From the IMG/VR virus record IMGVR_UViG_3300049734_000491, positions 32,001 to 96,000 of that record: 64,000 nt of DNA; one strand, written 5' to 3'. This stretch comes from a virus. The stretch's first letter is position 1; each line of letters starts with the position of its first letter. A program made the translations under genes and the position numbers. The notes under the pieces were generated by a model. The model had not been told where the DNA came from and did no database searches. It was given only the letters and a program-made list of their open reading frames with translations. Below are positions 2 through 52,056 of the stretch, in pieces.

Positions 2-3000
2 GAGGAGCAGAACATCCCAGCCCCGGACATCGACCCAGACGGCCGACTGGTCCCAGTGCCGGCTGAGCCAACTCCGGAGGCGGAGCCAGAGTCGGCAGCA
101 CCTCCGCCGGCGCAGCCGGAGCTCCGTGCACCCGAAGCGCTGTCGCCCGAAGCCCAGGACCGTGTCGAGAACGAGCTCGATGCCTGGGAGGAGCGGATGA
201 ACAACGCCGGGATGGAGGTCAGCAATGCCGACCTCGACCGGCACCGCAGGCGTCTCGAGGACCGAGAGCGCCGGCGGGCGGTAGGCCAGGGCGAGCAGAT
301 CGTGGAGCAGGGGTCTCGAGAAGGTGACTGGGGACGACCGGCTCCTGGTGGCGAGCCGCTCTGGGTGCCACCCCAGGAGTGGGTCGAGGCCGAGCAAGAA
401 CGACGTGGTCTTCGGGAGACCATCCTCTTCGACCCCGACCAAGCCAAGAAGTCCCAGGCGTTCTGGAGGAGCTACAACCACCCAGCCGGTTCCATCAAGT
501 TCACCCCGCCGGCGGACCTCGACGAGATGGACCTCGACCGTCTCGAGGGTGAGATCGAGGATCTCCAGGAGGGACTCGACGACTTCGTCGAAGCTCGAGA
601 CCGAGGTGATGTCGAGAATGCCCTTGCAGCTCTGAACAACGCCATCGAGTCTCGGGACAACATCCGTGCCCTGCGGGACGAGACCGAGAACATGCTCGAG
701 GACACCTGGGACGACGGGGCCCTCGATGCGGACCTGGCCTGGATGGATGACGAGCGCAGCCAACTCGAGGCCGAGGTGGAGAAGATCCCAGACATCCGGC
801 CCTACGTGGACGACTGGTCTGACCCAGATGCCTTGGACAAGGCCAGGAACAAGCGGGCTCAGGAGACCCTCGACACCTGGAGCCGGGAGGGCGTCTTCGA
901 GATCCCGCCGGAGATCGACGACCGGTCCGGGAAGCTCAAGTATGAGTACCCGAGCGACGATGCCAATCGAGCTGTCCAGACCATCCAGGAGTTCCTGCCG
1001 ACCTACATGGAGTCGCTTCAGGATGATCCCGACCAGGCTCGAGGTGCTCTCCAGGAAATCCAGATGGCTCGAGACGACCTGCGTCGGCTCAGCCAGGAAT
1101 GGGCCGGCGGAGCTGATTGGCCTGAGGGGAACTCCGACCTGGCTGACCTCGACTGGGTGGACGACGAGTTGGCCCGACTCGATCAGCTCGTCGGCGGGCC
1201 CGGCGAATCGGATGTGATCAATCAAGGCGCCCTCGAGCCGGGAGAACCCGGGCGGCCCTACACGCCGGCTGAGTGGCCATCAGCCAGGCTCGATCCCGAA
1301 GCTGATCCCCAGGCGGCCGTTGCACAACTCGAGCAGCAGATCGAGAGCGTGCGTGGCCTGCGGGACAACATGCAGAGCTACTACGACAAGATGGCTGAGC
1401 GTGGTTGGGGCGGCGACACCCGTCGCCCGGGTCGATGGAATCGCCAGGACGCCCAGGGCAAGCTCGACATGTACAACCGCGAGCTGGCCGGCTACGAGGC
1501 GGAGTTGGCTGATCTTCAAGGGCGGTACCCAGAAGAAGGAGCACCGACAGCCGGTGTTCGTGGACTGACTCCGTCAGGCAAGACCAAACCAAAGGACGGT
1601 CGCTTCAGCCCAGAGGAGTGGGAGCAGGCCAAGATCGATCCCGAGACCGATCCCCAGGGTGCCCTCGACCAGGCCCAGTGGCAACTCGAGAAGTTGAACC
1701 AGTCCCTTCAGTTCATCCGCAAGCGCAGGAGCCAACTCCGACGGGACCGGGAGAGTCCCCAGTGGCCCAAGGCCGAGCGGGAACGCCTGGCTGAGATGCA
1801 GCAGGTGCGGGAGTACATGGCTGAGCTCAAGGCCAGGTACCCCGACCTCGAGCCCGACGCAGCCGGCTTTACGCCACCCGAACTCGAGGTGCCGGACTTC
1901 CAGGCACAGCAGCGCATCCTGCGGGAGTGGCGGGATGACATCGAACGGGTCGGCGGCTTCGCCGGCGGCAACTGGCACGCCAGCGAGTTCGGTGGCCGGG
2001 ACACCGTCAGGTACGACGGACCCGACGGCAGGACGTTCGAGTTCAGCCAACCGGACGGTGCCAACTGGGAGATCGCCGAGTTCGACCGGGACGGCAACCA
2101 CATCGCCACCTTCGACGTCGGTGACCGCAATCCGATCGAGGCGCTGGCCGAGGTCAGGCGGGGCGAGCTCGAACCGAACGTTCCAGGAGAGCCGCCGCGG
2201 GGTGCCGAGCCACGAAGCGTCGATGAGCGGATCGACGATGTCGAGGATCGCATCGGTCGAGTCATGGACGACATGAAGGTCGCCCAGGAGCGGTACAACG
2301 CCGACAAGTCCGACGAGAACAACACGGCGTACCAAGACCTGATCGACGAGTACTACCGGCTCGGTGACGAGCTCCGTGGTCTTCAGAACGAGCGGGCAGC
2401 TCAAGGACCACCGCAACCACCGGAGCCGTTCACCCCGACGCCGGCCGGGGAGCAGTTCAACACGGGGATGCCGCTCCTCGACCGCAACGCCAATCTCATC
2501 CATCGAGAGGACTGGCCGGGCAAGTTCCGTGGTACGGAGGTTGACGGAGTACCAACGATCGAATATACTGATCCAGACGGAACGATTTACGAGCTCCACG
2601 AACCGTCCCCCGGGGAATGGAGGGTGCGTTCCTACAGCCCCGATCGTCAGGAGCTCCTCGACACTTGGGACATCGATCGAGACGTCGCTGAGCCCTGGCA
2701 ATACTTCAAGTACGACATCCTCGGTGAGCCGGGTCGACCTGCTCCGGTAGCTCGAGACCGTGAGATGGGCGACGTCCTTGAGTTGCCTGAGCCGGCTTCG
2801 TATGAAGAGATGGTCCAGGGCTTCATCGACCGGGCCAAGGGTGGCGATACCGGAGCCATGAACGAGCTCCGGGACCGGCTGGTCGGCTCGAGGTGGAGCC
2901 AACTCGACGAGATCCGGGACCAGAACCTCGACCTGAACGAGGGGCCCGGGGCCTGGGACGGTGAGCTCGTCCGGGGCCGCAATGGCAAGTTCCTGGCCTA

Positions 3001-47890: not shown

Positions 47891-48415
47891 TCACGACTGA
47901 CGCTGCCGAGCCCTCCAACGTCGACCAGCTTCTCGCTGACACGTTCGACAACGACGAAACCCTTTCGGGTCGATGTACGTGTTCGCTGTGTCGTAGGGAT
48001 GTCCGAACGGACAGCTGGTCATGTGTTCGTAGCGTCGACGTAGGTTCTCGGAGCGCGTAACCGGCTCGAGATGCTCAGGATTCACACACAGCGTGTTGAG
48101 GCAGAGGTGATCAAGGTCCAAGTCATCTGGAACCTTGGGTCCAAGCGCTTCGTAGATAAGTCGGTGTGCTCGATGAGTGCGACCCTGCCACTTGATCTGA
48201 CCGTACCCATCACTACTGACTGTTCCTTTCCACTGCCAACAACCTGAGCTAGGGACAATTTCGTAGAGACGGTGTAAACGATCTTCAAGAGTCTCGTCAC
48301 GAAATGCCCCACCAGCGTAAGGATCACCGTACCGCGACTGTCGATAGTGGTGAGGTCCGCAAAATCCATCTGCTCTGATCGGACGAGAGCAGTCTGGCAG
48401 CAAGCACTCAGACAT
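47891..48415 (-). CDS. HNH endonuclease with N- and C-terminal Zn motifs
   Basis: GCWQWKG..DGYG..AHR..LDHLCLNTLCVNPEHLEPVT.SEN; CPFGHPY..RRCRTC. Confidence 0.9.
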   Translation of the reverse strand: MSECLLPDCSRPIRADGFCGPHHYRQSRYGDPYAGGAFRDETLEDRLHRLYEIVPSSGCWQWKGTVSSDGYGQIKWQGRTHRAHRLIYEALGPKVPDDLDLDHLCLNTLCVNPEHLEPVTRSENLRRRYEHMTSCPFGHPYDTANTYIDPKGFRRCRTCQREAGRRWRARQRQS

Positions 48416-48426
48416 CAACGTGAACT

Positions 48427-49728
48427 CTAATCGTACGGAAGCTCCAAGTGCTTCAGAATGTGGTACGCCAACCAACGTGCCACCGGTGAAGCGATCCCAT
48501 TACCAATCATCTTGTATCGTGCACTATCTGGGATTTCGTTGCCACTTGAATCCCATCTAGTATGATCATCCGGCCAGCCCTGCAGTCGCTCACACTCCCG
48601 AGGCGTGAGCCGTCGAACCCCGATCATGTCCCCAGCTACCTGTGGGACACCAGCTCCGTTGGCCACCCGTAGCGTCGGGGTGAACTTGTCCGACACCTGC
48701 TCGTCGTGCAGGTTGTTCCCGTTGAACGAGACCACCGCCGGAGCGTGGCCGTCCGCCGGCAGCGTGGGCGAAGGATCCCCGGGCTTGGGATGGGATCGGT
48801 TGGTCTTGCTGGTGATCTGGGCGGTGTCGAACGGCATCGGCTCAGCCACGACCGTGTACATCCCCTTGTCGAGGCGGGTGGGGATCCCCTTGTAGTCGCG
48901 AGCTGTCAGCGTGTTGGCCATCTCTGGGATGAAGGTCATGCGCTCGGTGTCGGGTGACCAGCCACGTCGACCGGACCCCCCGCCCAGCGTGCCGGCCACG
49001 TCGGGGATCAAGTGGTTGGCTTGGGCGGAGTTGTCATCCGCGCCGCAACCTGCTCCAACGCCGTTTGCAGTGAGGGCGGAAGCGATCGTCCCCGACTTGC
49101 TGCCCTTCGCAGGATCCCGGCGCACCCTTTCGGTGACAGGAAGTATTTGGGGTCCACCGACTCTTCCAAGATCGAAGCAAGCGACGACGAACACTCGTCG
49201 GCGCCGTTGGGGGACTCCGCAGAAACGAGCATCCAGCACTCGCCACTGGATGTCCACCGCCCCGCATTCGGCCAAGAGGTCGAGGACTTGCGCGAAGTCG
49301 TCGCCCTGAGAGCTTGAGAGGGCGCCTCCGACGTTCTCCCAGACAGCATATGAGGGGATTCGTCCAAGGTCACGGTACTCCTTGATGATCCTGATCGCCT
49401 CGAGGAACAACCCCGAGCGAGTTCCTTCCTTCATGCCAGCTCGTTGACCCGAGATCGACAGATCTTGGCACGGGCTGCCGAAGCTGATGATGTCGCAGGG
49501 CGGCAGGTCCACTGCCTTCACGTCGGAGACATCGCCCCAGCGAGGTGTGTCCGGCCAGTGCCGAGCCAGGATCTCGTTGCACCACGAGTCCCACTCGACC
49601 AGTCCCACGGTGTTGGCCCCGACTGCCTCGAAACCGAGATCCATGCCACCGACGCCGGCGAACAGGGAGAGGTGGTCGGCCCGAGGAGTGGCGATCCGTC
49701 GCTGTCGTCGGCGAGTTGGGGTAGCCAT
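48427..49728 (-). CDS. DNA (cytosine-5) methyltransferase
   Basis: LFAGVGG, GDV, GSPCQDLS, ENV, PQRRRRVF, RRLTPRECERLQGWP, GN. Confidence 0.95.
   Translation of the reverse strand: MATPTRRRQRRIATPRADHLSLFAGVGGMDLGFEAVGANTVGLVEWDSWCNEILARHWPDTPRWGDVSDVKAVDLPPCDIISFGSPCQDLSISGQRAGMKEGTRSGLFLEAIRIIKEYRDLGRIPSYAVWENVGGALSSSQGDDFAQVLDLLAECGAVDIQWRVLDARFCGVPQRRRRVFVVACFDLGRVGGPQILPVTERVRRDPAKGSKSGTIASALTANGVGAGCGADDNSAQANHLIPDVAGTLGGGSGRRGWSPDTERMTFIPEMANTLTARDYKGIPTRLDKGMYTVVAEPMPFDTAQITSKTNRSHPKPGDPSPTLPADGHAPAVVSFNGNNLHDEQVSDKFTPTLRVANGAGVPQVAGDMIGVRRLTPRECERLQGWPDDHTRWDSSGNEIPDSARYKMIGNGIASPVARWLAYHILKHLELPYD
49008..49373 (-). CDS. Alternative-frame ORF nested in the methyltransferase gene (possible beta-polypeptide)
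   Basis: SLASILEE.VDPKYFLSPKGCAGILRRA..RG..LP..L..AL. Confidence 0.55.
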   Translation of the reverse strand: MTLDESPHMLSGRTSEAPSQALRATTSRKSSTSWPNAGRWTSSGECWMLVSAESPNGADECSSSLASILEESVDPKYFLSPKGCAGILRRAASRGRSLPPSLQTALEQVAARMTTPPKPTT

Positions 49729-49755
49729 GGTCGGAGCTTACTCGGTCGACCAGGC

Positions 49756-50040
49756 TCAGCCGGGAATGGTCAACTCATTTCGGCGCTTCCGTCGTCGGCT
49801 CGTCTGGCGGTTCTTGGCCTCATCGGTGGTGGGCCCCTCCATCATCACGACGCGGACGAGCCACTGGCGGCGGCACCGAGTGTTCACGCACTGCACCACC
49901 GTCACGGCCGTGTCGGTGGAGGGTTCCTGACCCGTCTTGTGGGTGTCCCCATCACGGTCGGACTGGAAGGTGTTGCTGTTCACGTGGTCGACCTGTCCAC
50001 CACAGCGGAGGCAGGTCACATCGAGTTGGTATCGGCTCAC
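49756..50040 (-). CDS. Small Zn-ribbon protein (94 aa)
   Basis: CLRCG...CVNTRC; TAGTAT 6 nt before GTG. Confidence 0.65.
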   Translation of the reverse strand: MSRYQLDVTCLRCGGQVDHVNSNTFQSDRDGDTHKTGQEPSTDTAVTVVQCVNTRCRRQWLVRVVMMEGPTTDEAKNRQTSRRRKRRNELTIPG

Positions 50041-50071
50041 AGGGCCATACTACAACTCATTGGTGAAACCC

Positions 50072-50350
50072 CGCCACCGCCGGCCGTGATTCCTGTGGCT
50101 GTCGGTGGGCTTTTGTCCGACGGTGGCGTGAGATGCCCCGCACCGCCAACCGCTCCTCGAAAGGCTGTCGAGGTAACTTCAGGTTGACGGTGCGGGAACC
50201 CGATGATCGCCACTGGTCTTGGCTGTCGATGCGACATCGGATCATTGGGTCGAGGGAGGGGCGGCTGTCGGATGTCCAATGGACCCTAGAAGGTGTCACC
50301 GCTGGCCGGAGTGCTTACAGCTGTCGCGAACTCTATGGGCCAGCGGTGAC
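50072..50350 (-). ncRNA. TIGR-like stem-loop guide array, 5 dual-spacer units
   Basis: Units at 50072-50128, 50137-50196, 50198-50250, 50247-50286, 50295-50350. Each reads stem-[CCA-like]-N9-CG-ACAG-[CCA-like]-N9(10)-CG-stem on the - strand. Confidence 0.85.
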
Positions 50351-50355
50351 GAGTA

Positions 50356-51210
50356 TTACAGACCCTCCTCTGACTTCCAGCGGGGCGGGAGGCCCGAAGC
50401 GACACGCCACAGGTCGATGCCGATCTGCTTGGCGGTGAACCGGAGGGCGGCGTTGTGCTTGTGGGCCTGCGTCCACTCCTCGCGGGCCTCGTACTTCGCC
50501 TTGGCCTGATCGTAGGCATCACGGTAGGGAGACCGACGACGGGGCGCCCGTGTTACGGCTGTCGCGGCATTCGCGGCCGCGTCGTCGGTCAGGATGACGG
50601 GATCATCGGTACCACCACCGGTCGCGCACAGCCCAGCTCCCGTAACCACATCGGACTCGGTGGTGGTACCGGCCGAGCCGATCTGCTTGACGCAGGACTC
50701 GGCGAGCAGGTGGAGCAGCATCTTCGCCACGGGGTTGCCCAGAGCGAGGGTGTCTGCCTGGTCCATCCCCTTGCGGCGCTTGGCCGCGGGGTCGCCGTGG
50801 CCGCAGTAGGCCAGCAGCTGGCGGGGCGTGCGGTCGAACGGCTCGAGCGCCACGAGGTGGCGATCCTTGCCGCAGCGGAACGAGCACTCGTGCCCCTCGG
50901 GGGACTCGTCCATCCAGATCCACGGCTCGGCGTGGATGGGATCACCGATGGCACCGAGCAGGCGAGCCACGGTGTGCTCACCCAGTCCGACGGTGTCTCG
51001 GGCCCACGCGTAGAGCTCGGGGGCGGCGACACGGAAGGTCCGCTTCATCGCCAGCGCCAGCATCTTCTCGGTGGCCTGCAGGTTGGTCACGTGCTGGGTC
51101 ATGGCCTCGGGGGCCGCTGGGATGTGGCGGAGTCTGTGCTCCGTGGCGATCCGCAGCTTCTGGGCATCGTGATAGCTCTCGGCGATCACCTTCAATTGGT
51201 CGTAGCTCAT
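50356..51210 (-). CDS. tasA: TasA-like Nop-domain (IS110-related) RNA-binding protein lacking a nuclease domain
   Basis: Coiled coil YHDAQKLRIA..HRL; HhH GLGEHTVARLL; RT..QL.AYCG; GN..AK..L; SPYR..YD; H.HN.ALR..AK. No N-terminal DEDD/RuvC domain and no SG catalytic motif; array is adjacent. Confidence 0.8.
   Translation of the reverse strand: MSYDQLKVIAESYHDAQKLRIATEHRLRHIPAAPEAMTQHVTNLQATEKMLALAMKRTFRVAAPELYAWARDTVGLGEHTVARLLGAIGDPIHAEPWIWMDESPEGHECSFRCGKDRHLVALEPFDRTPRQLLAYCGHGDPAAKRRKGMDQADTLALGNPVAKMLLHLLAESCVKQIGSAGTTTESDVVTGAGLCATGGGTDDPVILTDDAAANAATAVTRAPRRRSPYRDAYDQAKAKYEAREEWTQAHKHNAALRFTAKQIGIDLWRVASGLPPRWKSEEGL
50531..50671 (-). ncRNA. Two TIGR-like stem-loop units embedded in the tas coding sequence
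   Basis: 50531-50590: stem-CCG-CGAATGCCG-CG-ACAG-CCG-TAACACGGG-CG-stem. 50607-50671: stem-CCG-ATGTGGTTA-CG-GGAG-CTG-GGCTGTGCG-CG-stem. Confidence 0.8.
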
Positions 51211-51244
51211 TGTCTTGTCCTTTGGTCGTTGTCGTTGTCGTTGG

Positions 51245-51739
51245 TCAGTTGTCGAGGTCAGCGAGACAGGTCACGCCGGCCGCGATGATGGTCTGTGCAG
51301 CCTCCTCGTGGGCGAGGCGGGTGTCACGGATGGAGTTCTCTTGGGTGAGCAGCCAGCCCGCACGGGCGAGATGGTCGTCGGCGGTTGCCTTCAACCATTC
51401 AACCCATCGTCCATCGGGCAGGATGAACGACTGCTCCATGAGCAGCCGACGGGCGGTAGTGGGGTCGGCTCCGGCCGCGATGTCGGTCCGGACTCGGATC
51501 TCGGTCCGACGAACCTCGGCCCGCTGAATGCGGGACACCTCGTAGCGCACGAGCTGGAGCAGCCAGCGCCGTCGCTCGGACTCGGTGAGCGCAGCGATGG
51601 CTGCCTCGGCGATGTCCTGCTGATCTTCGAGACCCGAAGCGATCGCAGCCTTGATGTGGGCGTAGAGCGACGTGGGTGTCGTGACAGCCGACGGGAGGGT
51701 AGTGGTTGTCGGTGTTGTTGGTGGTGCTTGGAACGTCAT
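51245..51739 (-). CDS. Hypothetical helical protein directly upstream of tas (164 aa)
   Basis: Same strand, 34-nt gap containing the AAAGGA RBS for tas; FILPDGRWVEW..AT..DH motif. Confidence 0.75.
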   Translation of the reverse strand: MTFQAPPTTPTTTTLPSAVTTPTSLYAHIKAAIASGLEDQQDIAEAAIAALTESERRRWLLQLVRYEVSRIQRAEVRRTEIRVRTDIAAGADPTTARRLLMEQSFILPDGRWVEWLKATADDHLARAGWLLTQENSIRDTRLAHEEAAQTIIAAGVTCLADLDN

Positions 51740-51746
51740 GGCGGTG

Positions 51747-51777
51747 ACTATAACACACGGTCCTTCGCTGCTGACAA
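51747..51777 (-). promoter_or_regulatory. Sigma70/SigA-like leaderless promoter of the tas operon
   Basis: TTGTCA-N19-TATAGT (with TGN extension), 7 nt before ATG 51739. Confidence 0.55.
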
Positions 51778-52056
51778 ATTACCTGTGGTATCCACAGGAA
51801 GGAGCTCGCTGTGAGTCCCCGAGGAAGAGATCCTGATGACCCAGACGAGTTCCTGCTGTTCGTGCTGGTCGGCCTCGCTTGCCTGGTCCTGCTGTTCTAC
51901 TGGTTCCTGTGGTGGTACCGAACAGGCGGGTCGTAACAGGATTGACACGAACGGAACCCATCTGTAGTACCCTGCCACAAACGAACGGAGCGACCCCCCC
52001 TGCCAAGAGAAGGTCGCTCCGTTGTCCTAATCATCCACTGAAAGGACCCGCCGATT

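Follow-up and report, generated by a model that had tools for sequence, protein, structure and literature searches.

The stretch of DNA analyzed here (the window) comprises 64,000 nucleotides (nt), bases 32001-96000 of the virus record IMGVR_UViG_3300049734_000491. The record is 127,992 bases long, has a G+C content of approximately 63%, and is 95% complete as estimated by CheckV. On its minus strand, the window encodes a TasA-type protein of 284 amino acids (aa), a TIGR-associated Nop-domain protein that has no nuclease and belongs to a stem-loop TIGR-Tas system; an array of hairpins that encode guide RNAs (tigRNAs) lies directly downstream (Table 1). Two further hairpins, A and B, are in frame inside the tas open reading frame (ORF), within residues ~176-227. 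We propose, with a probability of roughly 0.72, that guide units are encoded on the sense strand of this effector gene, in a disordered loop referred to as insertion 1, in addition to those of the downstream array.

Table 1. Coordinates of the tas gene, its intragenic units, the downstream array, and the window matches of covariance model R1 (window positions).
Feature	Position	Strand	Basis or details
tas gene, TasA type, 284 aa	50356-51210	-	ORF, profile and fold matches
Disordered low-complexity insert, codons 176-227, at insertion 1 between the CTD2 and CTD3 helices	50530-50685	-	Predicted local distance difference test (pLDDT), alignment
Intragenic tigRNA unit A	50531-50590	-	15-nt arms with 14 Watson-Crick pairs, 30-nt loop, top R1 match
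Unit A parts	5' arm 50590-50576; loop 50575-50546; 3' arm 50545-50531	-	
Unit A loop parts	Spacer A 50573-50565; loop repeat 50564-50556; spacer B 50555-50547	-	
Intragenic hairpin B, probable variant tigRNA unit	50607-50671	-	Perfect 14-bp stem
Hairpin B stem parts	5' arm 50671-50658; bulged A 50657; extension 50656-50654 / 50623-50621; 3' arm 50620-50607	-	RNAfold
Hairpin B loop parts	Inner loop 50653-50624; proposed spacers 50651-50643 and 50633-50625	-	
Stem-loop TIGR array, beginning 5 nt past the tas stop	50072-50350	-	Box CGACAGC and flanking stems
Array units	50295-50350; ~50199-50249; 50137-50196; 50072-50128; a weak one at ~50270	-	
R1 match, unit A (best of 44)	50536-50585	-	27.8 bits, E 7e-4, model positions 1-50, full length
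R1 match, array unit	50298-50347	-	26.8 bits, E 1.1e-3
R1 match, array unit	50142-50191	-	19.3 bits, E 0.053
R1 match, array unit	50072-50128	-	16.7 bits, E 0.2
R1 match, array unit	50199-50249	-	14.0 bits, E 0.78
R1 match, unit B	50609-50669	-	12.3 bits, E 1.9, stem alone aligned

For the protein, a profile of 61 homologs searched against PDB sequences matched TIGR-TasR (9mty_A, E 3.4e-21) and TasH (E 1.1e-13). The AlphaFold2 model built with these 61 homologs (pLDDT 89, predicted template modeling score 0.82) opens with two long coiled-coil helices (residues 3-28 and 35-62), and a nuclease or further domain is absent. Foldseek ranks 1-10 for this model were all TasR or TasH chains: 9mty occupied the first two (9mty_B at E 3.4e-7, the next at 1.5e-6), followed by TasH chains. 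Beyond these were the IS110-type recombinases ISCro4 and IS621 at approximately 4e-3, and Nop5 at 0.83. We also considered an IS110-family recombinase and ruled it out: the DEDD RuvC-like and serine catalytic domains are absent, and a Pfam search of the 284-aa protein returned no family at E ≤ 1, IS110 families included. The protein does match phrog_4285 in PHROGs, labeled "transposase" (2.6e-25), a label that arises because the RNA-binding and coiled-coil fold is common to Tas proteins and IS110 recombinases.

A first-pass annotation of this DNA, made from its letters alone, had read the gene as encoding a Tas protein with a low-complexity insert of ~50 aa between conserved helices. The PDB profile search and Foldseek confirm the former, and the insert is also as described. 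The peptide spans residues 178-226, and the AlphaFold2 model is unstructured across residues ~176-227, where pLDDT is 53-61 versus 91-98 in the flanks; confidently modeled helices (160-175 and 228-240) border it. Insert columns have low occupancy in an alignment of 121 sequences, and the flanks are conserved in the alignment of 119 homologs. When aligned to 9mty, the insert falls between chain residues K246 and Q247-R248-T249-S250. In TaTasR, insertion 1 corresponds to Q247-T249 and the wedge to G210-K230 (Xu et al., bioRxiv 10.64898/2026.09.09.750476), and the 9mty chain letters at 210, 230, 247, and 249 match that numbering. The units are therefore in insertion 1 and not in the wedge loop. 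The peptide is of low complexity because palindromic arms are translated, giving mirror codons. Specifically, the unit B arms read GTTT and TGGGT in the tas frame (ACC and GGT being reverse complements), and the 5' arm of unit A reads TDDA. The 3' arm of unit A reads PRRRS and consists of the codons of a conserved RRRS motif.

As inverted repeats, unit A has 15-nt arms that are 93% complementary and 30 nt apart, and unit B has 14-nt arms that are 100% complementary and 37 nt apart. We counted hairpins with at least 13 Watson-Crick pairs, no more than one mismatch, and a loop of 25-40 nt across the whole window. Only four were found, namely units A and B and the array units at 50137-50196 and 50295-50350, all within 535 nt. 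Dinucleotide shuffles of the window contained a mean of 0.15 such hairpins (one each in 3 of 20 shuffles). Both hairpins are drawn in the predicted RNA fold of 50520-50685 on the minus strand, with a minimum free energy of -81.1 kcal/mol (z -2.56; 2 of 200 shuffles folded equally well).

The coding context allows a stricter comparison, in which codons 174-230 were replaced synonymously 1,000 times with local codon usage and, separately, the segment's own synonymous codons were permuted 1,000 times. A 14-pair stem, of which the native sequence has two, was reached in none of the local-usage recodings (the best had 13 pairs, once) and in one of the permutations. Free energy discriminates weakly (16 and 49 of 1,000 recodings under the two schemes fold equally well), and stem length separates well. 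The synonymous codons of the insert are thus constrained at the RNA level.

To place the two hairpins, we assembled 154 loci: 72 viral and 80 metagenomic loci encoding relatives of this Tas, and two loci of this genome. They contain 452 hairpins in which 11 or more Watson-Crick pairs form, and the loop measures exactly 30 nt in 210 of these. A fixed plan emerges from the 176 such loops that are distinct. It opens with C1 (93%) and A2 (85%), followed by nine variable letters and then C12 and G13 (95%); further on come C18 and C19 (95-96%), A20 (85%), another nine variable letters, and C30 (95%). This layout matches the two-spacer layout of stem-loop TIGR arrays as described by Faure et al. (2025, PMC12045711). 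A detector for the layout, run over 745,810 bases, returned 496 units in tas orientation and 10 in the reverse orientation, and 3 when the loci were block-shuffled.

Unit A fits this plan. Its loop can be written in the family register as CG, a 9-nt spacer, the 9-nt loop repeat CGACAGCCG, a second 9-nt spacer, and a final C, and all six fixed loop letters are present. Covariance model R1, built from 140 units from other genomes and none from this genome, was run over the window with filters off and gave 44 matches at E ≤ 10, among which unit A ranked first. We conclude with certainty that unit A belongs to the family of stem-loop tigRNA units, in sense orientation and in frame. The hairpins of the downstream array have unrelated stems and share the loop box CGACAGC.

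Unit B is a probable variant tigRNA unit. According to RNAfold, a 30-nt inner loop arises past one bulged A and three more pairs, giving a bulged 17-bp stem, and this loop has five of the six fixed letters in the sense reading versus two of six in the antisense reading. The first-pass annotation had described two complete array units with stems of ~14 bp and exact 9-nt spacers. Both stems are as claimed and lie where that annotation placed them; completeness holds for unit A and is only probable for unit B. Likewise, the spacers are exactly 9 nt in unit A, where the 30-nt loop divides as 2+9+9+9+1, and in unit B only if the bulged 3-bp extension is accepted.

The insert was then compared across relatives of the protein. 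A search of 3,453 candidates returned 130 at E ≤ 1e-5, the best 120 of which were listed and 119 aligned for loop length. The loop equivalent to residues 177-227 falls into length clusters of 3-4, 9, 14, 21-22, 37-45, 55-65, 74-86, and 101 aa. The pattern xD[DGE]-(9..15)-RxRS closes 32 of the 45 inserts that are 30 aa or longer, versus 1 of the 74 shorter ones. For these 45 homologs the pattern was read at the protein level only; it is the trace that a stem with its 3' arm on Arg codons leaves in the protein.

For loci with DNA, hairpins could be counted directly. An insert of 22 aa holds one hairpin (L077), 44 aa holds two (L004), the 51 aa of this gene (L001) holds two, 73 aa holds three (L008), and 107 aa holds four (L020 and L021), so that insertion 1 grows by approximately 22 aa per hairpin. 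The suggestion in the first-pass annotation that homologs would differ in insert length by unit-sized steps is thus borne out, with hairpin count tracking length. Hairpins were absent from the inserts of L022 (29 aa) and of L083, L090, and L092 (20 aa). Four other loci (L094, L104, L142, and L147) have a Cys-rich insertion 1 of 31-40 aa, encoded by DNA without a hairpin; from their sequences, these look like true protein insertions, possibly metal-binding.

Insertion 1 is not the only site at which strict units fall inside the frame. Across all 154 loci, we placed 13 units in insertion 1 (6 loci: L001, L004, L008, L020, L021, and L077), 11 in the wedge (7 loci), 2 in the loop equivalent to residues 101-113 (2 loci), and 21 in the C-terminal tail (16 loci). 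An additional 201 units at 60 loci are in open frame upstream of the Nop core, and these could precede the gene instead of being part of it. At these 60 of 154 loci (L029, L046, L043, L065, and 56 others), the stop-to-stop tas frame runs uninterrupted across array units upstream, taking in as many as 8 units and ~250 codons, which by our estimate is far beyond chance at this G+C content.

Several results weigh against the proposal that both hairpins are guide units. Unit B requires the bulge to reach the family register, a 9-12-9 loop layout, and in R1 it scores 12.3 bits in sense versus 10.9 bits in antisense orientation, with only its stem aligned. Unit A has G at loop positions 2 and 20, where 85% of family loops have A. 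Pair counts on the R1 alignment are circular, its rows having been picked as hairpins, and were excluded from the evidence. We compared 12 units with the full 128 kb of the phage itself, allowing both tandem arrangements and 0-2 bp between the half-sites, and found no site with two or fewer mismatches; sites with three mismatches numbered 0-2 per unit versus 0-1.4 for shuffled spacers, which is chance level. No CUU adjoins either intragenic stem. CUU is described as frequent at tigRNA processing boundaries but not as family-defining (Xu et al.), and the array unit at 50295-50350 has CTT 3 nt past its 3' arm.

Expression evidence is limited to two soil RNA libraries, in which three 151-nt contigs of depth 2 were found at 50299-50449 and 50546-50696 (X13) and at 50208-50358 (X14). 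Unit B is covered by them in full and unit A for the most part, along with array units. These contigs are at most a weak hint of expression: they are single pieces in which RNA ends are invisible and DNA may be present, a further point on the unfavorable side, and tas parts without RNA-library cover carry no weight. All RNA-library contigs from the 1,401-nt stretch that was compared with the libraries fall on array or intragenic units, although they are too few to carry weight.

The first of the alternative explanations, which we regard as unlikely, is that the hairpins are fossil units: descended from array units or arisen against the RRRS codons, they would yield no working guides and persist as a tolerated linker. 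The departure of unit B from the family layout and its failure in R1 would fit such decay, as would the two unusual letters of unit A, the lack of a self-target, and the absence of CUU at the stem bases. Nevertheless, unit A scores above every intergenic unit of its own array, and its G at positions 2 and 20 recurs in other units of this genome, intergenic ones included. Moreover, the stems have been kept against synonymous drift, given that 14 pairs are reached in 0 of 1,000 and 1 of 1,000 recodings.

Alternatively, the hairpins could act purely as mRNA structure, as sites of RNase III-type cleavage or as brakes on translation, setting the Tas level without ever being loaded as guides. Two long GC-rich stems would be expected to slow ribosomes and attract double-strand RNases, and guide activity is here a prediction. 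Such a role would not call for conserved letters in the loop or for a loop length fixed at 30 nt, and the six letters and exact guide register of unit A make it improbable. We consider it still less probable that selection acts on the insert as a flexible protein segment in contact with the tigRNA loop, with the palindromes as by-products of low-complexity composition. When a tigRNA is bound, insertion 1 lies within its spacer loop, and it is often disordered (Xu et al.); the Cys-rich proteins indicate that true protein inserts exist at this site. However, the synonymously recoded peptide almost never yields such stems, and the insert sequence is unconserved even in a 55%-identical homolog apart from the stem and box footprints. 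Finally, although GC-rich coding sequence folds well and the free energy here is only moderately unusual, chance palindromes are hardly credible with four such hairpins within 535 nt versus 0.15 expected in 64 kb and with unit A matched at E 7e-4.

If the hairpins are guide units, as we propose, they would be cotranscribed with tas or expressed from an internal start. By analogy with described systems, the units would fold, be bound by a Tas dimer, and be trimmed by host RNases into tigRNAs. The two 9-nt spacers of each guide would then base-pair with an 18-bp target, one spacer on each strand, and the complex, having no nuclease, would repress transcription. Guides cut from the tas mRNA would cost one message each, potentially coupling the Tas level to guide supply. 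Negative feedback of this kind, through guide processing of the tas mRNA, had been put forward in the first-pass annotation, and we likewise infer it by analogy.

A broader and rather doubtful possibility is that, in this actinophage clade, the long insertion 1 of stem-loop Tas proteins is RNA-driven and not an adaptation of the protein. Units may be born and lost in place, seeded by pairing with the conserved Arg codons of RRRS, which would supply the 3' stem arm, so that the gene itself would be a growing array and guide excision a guide-dependent brake on Tas synthesis.

The phage encodes a second Tas, a paralog that is 37% identical, outside the window (locus L002; G000:C1:124052-124810, minus strand). 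It has its own three downstream units (G000:C1:123828-124003, minus strand) with a different loop box, CGATACCC/CGATGCCC. Its insertion 1 is short (13 aa), and its C-terminal coding part holds two further hairpins with loops of 36-37 nt. Additional units with the tas loop box (CGACAGCC) are also outside the window, near the record ends, at G000:C1:3233-3914 (plus strand) and 126868-126927 (minus strand). Given that units with the same box occur near both ends, one guide type is spread over at least three sites.

Around the tas gene, a 164-aa gene without a Pfam family lies directly upstream (51245-51739, minus strand). Downstream of the array, 47891-49728 (minus strand) encodes a C5 cytosine DNA methylase (PF00145, 6e-54) and an HNH endonuclease (PF13392, 7.6e-12). 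Between 49700 and 52300, no sigma-70-like promoter was detected, by a model that may not fit actinophage promoters, and the single terminator-like site (51798-51782, minus strand) is within the count expected by chance.

The host of this soil phage is probably an actinobacterium. Scanning genomes with a smaller homolog alignment recovered six loci, including Nocardioides, Intrasporangiaceae, and Actinomycetes records and one Rhodanobacteraceae metagenome-assembled genome, and their taxonomy is a weak hint at the host. A megablast search of 49500-52000 against phage records for close relatives returned no match, nor did a scan of viral contigs with the single tas protein. Among the matches listed, the tas and array stretch was present in 14 sequencing runs, all labeled soil metagenome; at least half of the sampled words were present in 11 of these 14, and three runs are possibly the source of this DNA. 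No insert variants were found in DNA runs X9 and X11.

Overall, the locus offers a clean natural case in which one DNA stretch is both protein code and guide RNA. For annotation, it implies that low-complexity Tas inserts should be read first as RNA and that intergenic-only guide counts are too low. Unit-sized steps, together with RRRS codons that double as a stem arm, suggest a way in which units could originate without adaptation machinery, a question left open by Xu et al. For engineering, insertion 1 is a loop that tolerates from 3 to ~100 residues.

The arrangement in kind is already described, and the central idea is already in print. In a full-text literature search on intragenic tigRNAs, the preprint of Xu et al. 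(bioRxiv 10.64898/2026.09.09.750476) was the sole match. In-frame intragenic tigRNAs in disordered loops are reported there, two of them in BlTasA of Bifidobacterium longum, where tigRNAs inside the coding sequence were detected by small-RNA sequencing; according to a figure legend, the BlTasA wedge loop overlaps two tigRNA-coding regions. The same authors suggest that intragenic placement may link guide maturation to translation, and TasA is shown there to be a repressor of transcription. Faure et al. (2025, PMC12045711) described stem-loop arrays that accompany TasA as well as the tandem rule for targeting two strands.

Among known proteins, the IS110 bridge-RNA recombinases IS621 and ISCro4 resemble this Tas in RNA-binding and coiled-coil fold (Foldseek E 4e-3), but unlike them it lacks the DEDD and serine catalytic domains, and its RNA is a dual-spacer hairpin array and not a bridge RNA. 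The best structure and sequence match for the Nop core is TaTasR (9mty), of a dual-repeat TIGR-TasR system, which likewise relies on two 9-nt spacers. It differs in its RuvC nuclease domain, in guides of 36 nt that are cut from conserved edge repeats, and in a compact, 3-residue insertion 1. In the Tas described here, the nuclease is absent, variable stems replace the edge repeats, and insertion 1 is 51 aa.

The TasA system of the Peromyscus leucopus gut contig (Faure et al. 2025), as described, likewise combines a nuclease-less Tas with tandem hairpins that have variable palindromic stems and loops with two 8-12-nt spacers and conserved short flanking motifs. The arrays presented in that study are intergenic, whereas here two further units, one of them probable, are inside the effector gene. 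In this respect the nearest counterpart is BlTasA, which we compare by its published description. Both are nuclease-less stem-loop TasA proteins with two tigRNA-coding regions in frame (here one clear and one probable) in a disordered or RNA-contacting loop of the Nop domain. BlTasA has support from small-RNA sequencing and CUU at the stem base, whereas the case made here is sequence-based and CUU is absent beside both units. The BlTasA units are in the wedge loop, and those described here are in insertion 1, aligned to TaTasR Q247-T249. What this locus adds is modest: the placement of units in insertion 1, an RRRS motif that doubles as a stem arm, and a loop that changes in unit-sized steps.

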